DNA of 64,000 bases from Octopus vulgaris (taxonomy: Eukaryota): contig OX597818.1 of NCBI GenBank assembly GCA_951406725.2, positions 131,068,001 through 131,132,000 on the forward strand, given 5' to 3'. Below the pieces are notes generated by a model. The model saw only the letters and a list, made by a program, of their open reading frames with translations, had not been told where the DNA came from and ran no database searches. Within the stretch, counting starts at the first letter, position 1, and each line of letters starts with the position of its first letter. Both the position numbers and the translations under genes were made by a program. Shown here piece after piece: positions 23,981 through 33,934 of this stretch.

Positions 23981-24019
23981 TCTCTGTTATTATTATCATT
24001 GTTACTATTATTATTATTA

Positions 24020-24838
24020 GTGGAGAAGGCTAGCCACTGGATTTGGTTAAAAAGAGACGATGAGCGATGGCTAGAAGTATATTGAGTTCTTCATAACCAG
24101 CTGATCTAGCAAGCGGGGCCTCATATCAGTGAGGGGGGGCCGGTGCACATTGATGCCGTCGAGAGGTAGGCCCCGAAACGGCACGCATTCTCTCCTGATG
24201 ACCCCATACACTTGCTAGCTTCCGATATACAGAGCTTTTAACTGGTAGCACTTGCATGTGCAAGTTGTTTGCAAGACATGAGTGAAAGATCAGTGCATAC
24301 CATCTGAAGGACACTGGGGTAAAATATATGAAGCCCAGTATACCCGTCATGATTACCTGTCTGATAAAGGTACACCAGGCACATGCATCACAACCATATG
24401 TATGCAACATGGTGATCTTATATCAAGATAAGCAGTGCTTGACCTTGCGGGTGGGGCCCAGTTAGAATTTTCTTCAGGTCAAGCAGCCCATCCTGCTCAA
24501 ACAGTCCTTGCACAAGGGTTGTTTAAGGATGTTTAACAAAACACCCATCTTTCCAGAGGTGAATTATTCAAACACCAAAGAATTCCTCTCAACACGTGAC
24601 TATGATGCTCCCCCACAACTTCTGCTCATGATCAGAGATGCACATATCATCACCCACTAAGTGACATTCTCAACTGGTTAAGGTCAAACAACTGACAAGC
24701 AAATATGTGCTTATGAGTAGAATATTTGCTGTAGCCCATCTTTTATACTAAGACAAAACTATGTACATGATAACACTTCCAATCAGTTAAGATCAGAGGC
24801 CATGAGAGCCACTGTCTGGTACTGCATTAGAGCATCTA
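24020..24838 (+). mobile_element. 5'-truncated HERO-like (restriction-like endonuclease) non-LTR retrotransposon in an (ATT)n tract
   Basis: 24020-24085 encodes VEKASHWIWLKRDDERWLEVY*, resembling the AE(K/R)ASxWLWLxR..W C-terminus of HERO-clade ORFs; about 750-bp GC-richer 3' UTR; (TTA)n on both sides. Confidence 0.7.
24106..24218 (+). ncRNA. Candidate non-circularly permuted hammerhead ribozyme (GUC site; predicted cut after 24160)
   Basis: GGGGCC(24136-41)..UGCCG-UC-GAGAG-gua-GGCCCC-GAAA-CGGCA..CUCUC-CUGAUGA-CCCC; perfect stems I, II and III; closing stem CUAGCAAG/CUUGCUAG. Confidence 0.75.
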
Positions 24839-26505: not shown

Positions 26506-26970
26506 TCATCATCATCATCATCATTGTTTAACGTTCGCCTTCCATGCTAGCATGGGTTGGACGGTTCAACTGGGGTCTGGGGAGCCCGAAGGCTGCACCA
26601 GTCCAGTCAGATCTGGCAGTGTTTCTACAGCTGGATGCCCTTCCTAACGCCAACCACTCCGAGAGTGTAGTGGGTGATTTTATGTGCCACCGACACAGGT
26701 GCCAGACGAGGCTGGCGAACGGCCACGCTCGGATGGTGTTTTTTATGTGCCACCGACACAGGTGCCAGACGAGGCTGGCAGACGGCCACGCTCGGATGGT
26801 GTTTTTATGTGCCACCGACACAGGTGCCAGATGAGGCTGGCAAACGGCCATGATTGGATGGTGTTTGTTACGTGCCCACAGCACGGAGGCCAGTCGATGC
26901 GGTACTGGCTACGGCCACGTTCGGATGGTTTTCTTGTGTGCCACGTGCCACCGGCACTGGTACCGGTACC
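26506..26970 (-). mobile_element. Family C copy with three internal tandem units of about 62 bp
   Basis: (CAT)n then CCATGCTAGCATGGGTTGGACGG; TTTATGTGCCACCGACACAGGTGCCAGA repeated three times. Confidence 0.85.
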
Positions 26971-33578: not shown

Positions 33579-33637
33579 AGTGAGAGGCTTATAAATTCCA
33601 CCCCCCACTTTTTTTTTTTTTTTTTTGCTTCTTTAAA

Positions 33638-33934
33638 GCACCATCCGATCGTGGCCGTTGCCAGCCTCGACTGGCCTCCGTGCCGGTGGCACGTAAAAAG
33701 CGCCATCCAATTGTGGCCGTTGCCAGCCTCGCCTGGCACCTGTGCCGGTGGCATGTAAAAAGCAACCACTACACTCACGGAGTGGTTGGCGTTAGGAAGG
33801 GCATCCAGCTGTAGAAACACTGCCAGATCAGACTGGAGTCTGGGGCAGCCTCCTGGCTTCCCAGACCCCGGTTGAACCGTCCAACCCATGCTAGCAAAGA
33901 AAACGGACGTTAAACGATGATGATGATGATGATG

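Follow-up and report, generated by a model that had tools for sequence, protein, structure and literature searches.

A candidate hammerhead ribozyme with a split core in the 3′-UTR of Hero-clade retrotransposons

Introduction

A 64,000-nt stretch of Octopus vulgaris DNA (contig OX597818.1; hereafter the window) contains, in the 3′-UTR of a retrotransposon copy, 113 bases (24106..24218, + strand) that had been predicted from the letters alone to form a pseudoknotted, non-circularly permuted hammerhead ribozyme. The locus raises the question of whether these bases are such a ribozyme and, if so, what self-cleavage would mean for the element that carries them. Here, the motif was examined in the window, in relatives of the element and in genomic copies.

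Results

The candidate ribozyme belongs to a Hero-clade retrotransposon

Within its own genome, the region containing the motif has matches at no fewer than 2,273 candidate places, the top 40 of them at 96–100%. The copies have a common sharp 3′ end (GCAAGAC/AT) and variable 5′ ends. Longer copies contain a single ORF with a reverse transcriptase (RT) domain (RVT_1 match), after which the ORF translations contain what we take to be a CCHC motif and a restriction-like endonuclease (RLE) with a PD...E motif. By eye, the RT of the element is colinear with HERO-1_BF, HEROTn and HERO-1_SP (alignment in the PMC7650587 supplement). The named protein homologues came from fish and lancelet, which are hosts given for Hero (PMC9004415). 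Because a single ORF with the order RT–CCHC–RLE is combined with an RT resembling the HERO proteins, the host element is, on its protein sequence, a Hero-clade non-LTR retrotransposon. The fold begins 20 nt past the stop codon of this ORF (Table 1).

A promoter was not located for the element. Its 5′-UTR (positions 1–130 of the L278 unit) carries repeated small hairpins with GGAAAGAC loops, and similar repeats lie past the 3′-UTR in 7 of 30 relatives (L204, L207, L208, L216, L224 and L229 among the loci); these are possibly promoter or protein-binding repeats. Elsewhere in the window, two arrays of a related 62–63-nt unit lie in opposite orientation at 26678-26876 and 33635-33764.

Table 1. 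Features of the candidate ribozyme and of its host element in the window
Feature	Position	Strand	Remark
5′-truncated Hero-clade RLE non-LTR retrotransposon	24019..24279	+	last ~260 nt of the 3,736-nt unit; ends GCAAGAC, then AT
Element ORF end (endonuclease C-terminus)	24020..24085	+	last 21 codons and stop; same end in L032
P0 helix	24106-13/24211-18	+	pairing in the window
Helix X	24115-18/24202-05	+	pairing in the window; A9 continues into X rather than stem II
Hairpin between X and stem II	24119-34	+	in relatives mostly zero linker nt
Stem II	24136-41/24169-74	+	G10.1 = 24136; 5′ strand upstream of the cleavage block
I–II bridging helix GGUGC/GCAUU	24142-46/24185-89	+	the "I" helix of type SGC
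Stem III	24154-59/24178-83	+	pairing in the window
Stem I	24161-65/24190-94	+	pairing in the window
Block S	24154..24165	+	C17 = 24160; predicted cut 24160/24161
Block G	24166..24183	+	3-nt linker, stem II 3′ strand, GAAA 24175-78, stem III strand
CUGAUGA	24195-201	+	A9 = 24201; preceded by bridging strand 24185-89 and stem I strand 24190-94
3′ tail to fixed insertion end	24219..24277	+	putative start point of reverse transcription

The window copy considered alone

All of the strands and helices named in the original prediction were found in the window with complete pairing, together with the exact core and the GUC triplet (24158-60). The copy is slightly decayed: it has a run of 7 G, as against 6 G in 15 of 30 copies, and A in place of G at 24147 and 24183 leaves the I–II helix with 5 bp, not 7. 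Its folding energy is ordinary (z −0.17; −1.39 in a second test), and folding of single sequences misses the active structure. Nested folding instead gives, at minimum energy, a different rod, in which CUGAUGA is buried and paired with hairpin sequence (−42.2 kcal/mol versus −34.6 kcal/mol for the best nested part of the active fold, pseudoknots being unscored). A core-hiding rod was also predicted in L177 and L178, and it might be guessed from these folding models that the competing rod could serve as an off state in the sub-branch of the window. As anticipated for standard searches, Rfam scans miss the motif: the window and 20 loci gave no match at the gathering score, and an E-value scan gave only two matches, both at chance level (E 2.8 and 7). 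Since the single sequence shows little by its energy, its fold or Rfam, the case was built on comparison.

Core and helices are conserved among relatives

Relatives were collected as 79 metagenome loci by alignment of the C-terminus of the protein (27–53% identity), with the RNA disregarded. The core with stems I and III was present within 400 nt of the ORF end in 50 of the 79, compared with 0.02 per 79 in shuffled sequences and none on the opposite strand, well beyond chance. When a wider span was searched, the order site–GAAA–CUGAnGA was found in 53/79 relatives, with covarying stems. In these relatives, the helices are both conserved and covarying. Viral contigs containing the core words yielded chance matches only and were used as background; in them, stems I and III formed in 3 of 121 core-word matches.

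The remaining relatives include ten (of 79) too short to judge, five with a changed core (AAAA for GAAA, UUGA for CUGA) and 11/79 that have at least 300 nt downstream and lack an intact motif. Four of these 11 share a branch whose two positive members carry the motif 650–750 nt out.

The 53 relatives follow the hammerhead rules. A15.1:U16.1 occurs in 53/53, although the search had left the pair free, and nucleotide 17, which was likewise left free, is never G (GUC 19, GUU 17, GUA 13, AUA 4), GUU being a slow triplet. All four bases occur at N7. The hammerhead core C3 U4 G5 A6 N7 G8 A9, G12 A13 A14, A15.1:U16.1 and H17 is therefore complete in the window and in 53/79 relatives, suggesting that conservation has the form that catalysis would leave, in a set of sequences that are related to one another. 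Several positive loci are 55–84% identical to named fish proteins, indicating that the motif extends beyond this host.

The strand-order pattern also gave 6,645 matches in the genome of the window, compared with 418 in the control. Older T-rich repeat families (L156–L174, L389–L403; G000 C1 and others) show the same site–GAAA–CUGAnGA order, and several of them also have the upstream stem II, bridge, X and hairpin. The T-rich families show no similarity to Hero proteins, tblastn having matched only the 2 Hero loci among 35; a link to Penelope elements was rejected, the motif being present in 1 of 30 GIY-YIG loci, antisense and about 1.1 kb off. Downstream of its GIY-YIG ORF, a young Penelope-like family (L410, L415; 781-aa frames) has what we take to be an array of CCAAT-like and TGACGTC repeats, after which comes a TATA-like box.

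Stem II is formed with an upstream strand

The original prediction placed the stem II partner upstream of the cleavage site and an extra helix (CCCC/GGGG) directly after A9. The results showed that the partner is upstream in 43/50 relatives and downstream in 0/50, and that the base after A9 pairs into helix X in 35/40. The latter count refers to a register-fixed set of 40 de-duplicated sequences, from which 8 of 48 had been dropped as duplicates, truncated or poorly annotated. In this set, stem II pairs in 40/40, helix X in 33–35/40 and the hairpin in 36–38/40, each at positions 1–4, whereas direct stem II pairing in the manner of type SGC (base after A9 with 11.1) was found in 3/40 at position 1. 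The G10.1:C11.1 pair is present in 34/40 and a G-U pair in 5/40. The links from A9 to X, from X to the hairpin and from the hairpin to stem II mostly contain zero nucleotides, and P0 and X form mostly a single unbroken helix in relatives. Taken jointly, stem II, bridge, X and hairpin were found in 38/48, compared with 40/1,440 upstream shuffles; stem II alone is frequent by chance (607/1,440 shuffles, 42%).

A sequence-only alignment of 36 of the 40 contained 17 pairs, with 90.9% of the cells paired and a covariation of 0.759, compared with 0.205 when shuffled (0/500) and 0.09–0.14 when slid. The count of double-change pairs was not significant (reached in 61/500 shuffles), and the top ten mutual-information pairs all lie inside stems I and III and the bridge. 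As the covariation sets were chosen by descriptor, support for stems I and III is partly circular, and the unbiased count is the 50/79 given above. Thus, covariation across relatives bears out the pseudoknotted, non-circularly permuted reading.

The hairpin apex carries a palindrome of 6 nt in 21 of 39 distinct examples (UGAUCA, UGGCCA, GACGUC, AGUACU), a count made with no chance control. Palindromic loops, as in L185, L188, L190, L198, L208 and others, resemble kissing-loop dimer signals; the hairpin in the sub-branch of the window has a tetraloop in place of the palindrome. A short deletion between CAC direct repeats, by which the upstream stem II strand is lost, recurs in about 12 of the first 100 matches listed (e.g. 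L453, L460).

The fold contains five crossing helix pairs and is not a nested three-way junction. Types I, II and III, each a circular permutation of such a junction, were rejected on the crossing helices and the missing Rfam match. The block order S, G, C, a short S–G linker and the I–II bridging helix are those of type SGC, and GGUGC/GCAUU is the bridging helix of that type, not a side helix. An SGC hammerhead with an intact block C was rejected on the position of stem II and on the rarity of direct pairing, and the motif is therefore not filed as SGC. From the sequences compared, the fold is best described as type-SGC geometry, circularly permuted, in which the backbone appears to be opened between A9 and G10.1 to give a five-way junction; with block C split, it exceeds the six published permutations. 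In a viroid hammerhead, an inserted A or U was tolerated at the A9–G10.1 step and C or G was harmful, so by analogy with the C and G insertions a broken A9–G10.1 link may not be tolerated.

Some genomic copies begin at the predicted cut

For the boundary test, four non-element bases were demanded just before the predicted 3′ product. Six copies were found, all starting at the G after GUC, five of them following AT; the same test placed 7 nt upstream found one copy. In the sixth (L308), sequence from inside the ORF abuts directly on the first base of the predicted 3′ product. This joint resembles what a template switch or a ligation would leave. A scan for AT-bounded starts over 15 positions gave 83 matches, and 79 distinct sites (the first six included) were read with their flanks, adding two exact starts and one within 1 nt; the other 14 positions held about four scattered truncations of old copies. 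In total, eight copies start exactly at the equivalent of G24161, compared with ~0.3–1 per neighbouring position. In the upstream control (18 positions, 187 matches, 19 distinct sites read) there were 2–3 truncations, about one per position when scaled, and judged against it the enrichment at the cut site is roughly 7–10-fold. For seven AT-bounded starts against a background of 0.8–2 per position, the Poisson P is 2e-5 to 5e-3. Copies starting at the cut make up less than 1% of the candidates, of which there are at least 2,273, and truncations cluster elsewhere too (4/30 at −154 to −157). These copies lend modest support to cutting in vivo, in the germ line. Cleavage after C24160 by the usual G12/G8 chemistry of hammerheads is regarded as very probable.

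A non-catalytic fold might also be maintained here, on which the RT of the element docks as on the pseudoknot of the R2 3′-UTR, the hammerhead letters being vestigial or protein-binding. Such a role would suit the position of the motif, ~60–170 nt from the fixed 3′ end, the evident intactness of most templates, and the long helix X and hairpin that dominate the predicted folds. However, X and the hairpin are compatible with a ribozyme if stem II comes from upstream, the catalytic rules are conserved, including the exclusion of G at position 17 in all 53 relatives, and copies begin at the scissile bond, making a purely docking fold quite improbable. Docking and catalysis need not be mutually exclusive.

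Long copies are head-to-tail and mostly cross the cut site

Forty copies were found with the start of the 5′-UTR, 29 of which reach the first base; these and one more were fetched (n = 30). Upstream of the 5′-UTR, every one of the 30 runs on into the 3′ end of the element itself, for ~6 nt (L288) to nearly 2 kb, and more than two units are present at one locus (L279). More-than-unit head-to-tail insertions therefore occur. The cut site is crossed in 22/30 (two being a duplicate pair), 8/30 stop between the cut and the tail–head junction, and 0/30 have their start at the cut. On this ground, the idea that an upstream ribozyme defines the 5′ end, as it does in R2, was rejected. The junction varies hardly at all, and there is no accumulation of copies at the start of the 5′-UTR. 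The parts upstream and downstream of the junction share a haplotype in 2/2 informative loci. In 9/40 metagenome contigs that extend 700 nt or more downstream, the N-terminus of the ORF comes after the 3′-UTR on the same strand, an arrangement to which collapsed repeat assembly could contribute; terminal repeats were found in 0/47 contigs. In assembled contigs from four presumed-RNA runs, one contig crosses the tail–head junction; the contigs gave nothing on RNA ends and were uninformative on circles.

The R2 RT has been reported to jump between templates. If the RT of the Hero element did the same, tandems could arise from linear unit RNAs ending at the tail–head junction, the ribozyme being incidental. 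The joining of ORF-internal sequence to the cut site in L308 and the ~6 nt upstream of the junction in L288 fit such jumping. The near-invariant junction, the lack of a pile-up at the 5′-UTR start and the haplotypes that match across the junction argue against it, and it is regarded as very improbable.

A closer competitor, which accounts for most of the same data and fits better than either docking or template jumping, is a ribozyme that is active but silent most of the time, carried on linear read-through RNA of tandem units. The templates would then be uncut multimers, no circle would form, and cutting would merely trim or limit the RNA (at the 5′ end, in translation or as a brake on copy number). 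Uncut RNA would permit the crossing of the cut site in 22/30 copies and the more than two units in L279, and the core-hiding rod predicted in the window, L177 and L178 and the frequency of slow triplets (GUU 17/53) are in keeping with infrequent cutting. However, daughters would never be longer than the parent, so that long tandems would need renewal, and the absence of long copies starting at the upstream cut is contrary to 5′ trimming. Use of uncut linear multimers as templates is thus rather unlikely. Long copies that cross the cut and enter their own 3′ end fit a re-ligated circular template with internal priming.

Discussion

In the structure supported by covariation, A9 leads into helix X, and X, the hairpin and stem II come one after another with no linkers, the 5′ strands of stem II and of the bridging helix being supplied from upstream of the cleavage site. 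On the preferred reading, the element would be copied from a circular RNA. A partial-tandem transcript cut at both ribozyme copies would yield a unit-length RNA. Since X, stem II, the bridging helix and stem III all span the two cleavage products, the cut ends could re-associate and ligation to a circle, by the ribozyme or by RtcB, would be favoured. The RT of the element would then be primed internally, always at one site (...AAGAC/AU, at AT targets), and would travel round the circle over a varying distance, yielding 5′-truncated and more-than-unit copies, and 117-nt run-off copies where the template was still cut. The model would account for templates that are intact across the cut, for the missing 5′ end and for the rarity of 117-nt run-off copies. 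As a whole, this chain of cutting, ligation, circle formation and internal priming is considered somewhat probable. The widest claim, that a seventh, split-core topology occurs clade-wide in animal Hero LINEs and that these retrotranspose by rolling-circle reverse transcription, primed internally, of a circular RNA that has processed itself, is advanced tentatively, as it falls slightly short of an even chance.

The hammerhead class is known; what appears to be new, from the sequences compared, is an SGC-like ribozyme with a split block C as part of Hero 3′-UTRs. Neither the topology nor a ribozyme in Hero was described in the literature as far as searched, most subscription papers, Repbase reports and bioRxiv supplements lying outside the search. 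With such a ribozyme, natural hammerhead architecture would go beyond the six permutations held to be possible, and animal genomes would contain a non-circularly permuted ribozyme that escapes Rfam scans. A LINE clade known mainly by its protein gains a candidate RNA-processing step, and the proposal of circular-RNA copying for hammerhead retroelements becomes testable in a single-ORF RLE-type element akin to R2, elements of this class now being employed to insert genes.

That non-circular hammerhead permutations have been reported before, as the original prediction noted, is right: type SGC, including HRIMA-1 (Eckert et al., 2023; PMC10085705), is one. SGC and the Hero motif share the order of site, ~3 nt, GAAA block, bridging strand, stem I and CUGAnGA, as well as the I–II bridging helix, stems of 5–6 bp and a short or zero link from stem III to the bridge. 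In SGC, 0–1 nt separate A9 from the stem II strand, whereas the Hero motif has its stem II and bridging strands upstream of the site, the link from A9 to stem II being replaced by helix X and the hairpin. Eckert et al. assumed that blocks are unsplittable and, one bacterial GCS candidate aside, came upon none split in known genomes. HRIMA-1, which has the spacing of the Hero motif, cleaves with a bulged U at the exact A9–G10.1 step (PMC10085705).

Among retroelements, there are several parallels. The Penelope-like elements with pLTR hammerheads (Cervera and de la Peña, 2014; PMC4209133) are likewise autonomous and form head-to-tail more-than-unit insertions, and the circle model favoured here is the same as that proposed for them; their motifs are minimal, thought to be dimeric and linked to GIY-YIG, whereas the Hero motif has full stems and another topology and belongs to an RLE-type LINE. 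Non-LTR retrozymes (Cervera and de la Peña, 2020; PMC7229834) also consist of tandem units that are cut by hammerheads and were circularized mainly by RtcB in vitro, but they are non-coding, 170–400 nt long and of type I, whereas the Hero unit of 3.7 kb encodes RT and endonuclease. The circles demonstrated for retrozymes agree with the model favoured here. The HDV-like ribozymes of R2, itself an RLE element, and of L1Tc (PMC6765202) are likewise self-cleaving RNAs in non-LTR retrotransposons. They have the HDV fold, lie at the 5′ end and free the element from a co-transcript, whereas the Hero candidate is a hammerhead after the stop codon and, unlike with these 5′-end ribozymes, none of the 30 long Hero copies starts at the cut.

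A structural parallel is offered by the hammerhead of PDB 8YDC (PMC11300833), in which a pseudoknot helix fills the role of helix II. Its connectivity differs, the pairing strand being the loop of an added stem-loop, and an opening at A9–G10.1 is not described in the portions of that paper available. The 8YDC structure nevertheless suggests that a long-range stem II, such as that predicted for the Hero motif, is compatible with hammerhead chemistry.
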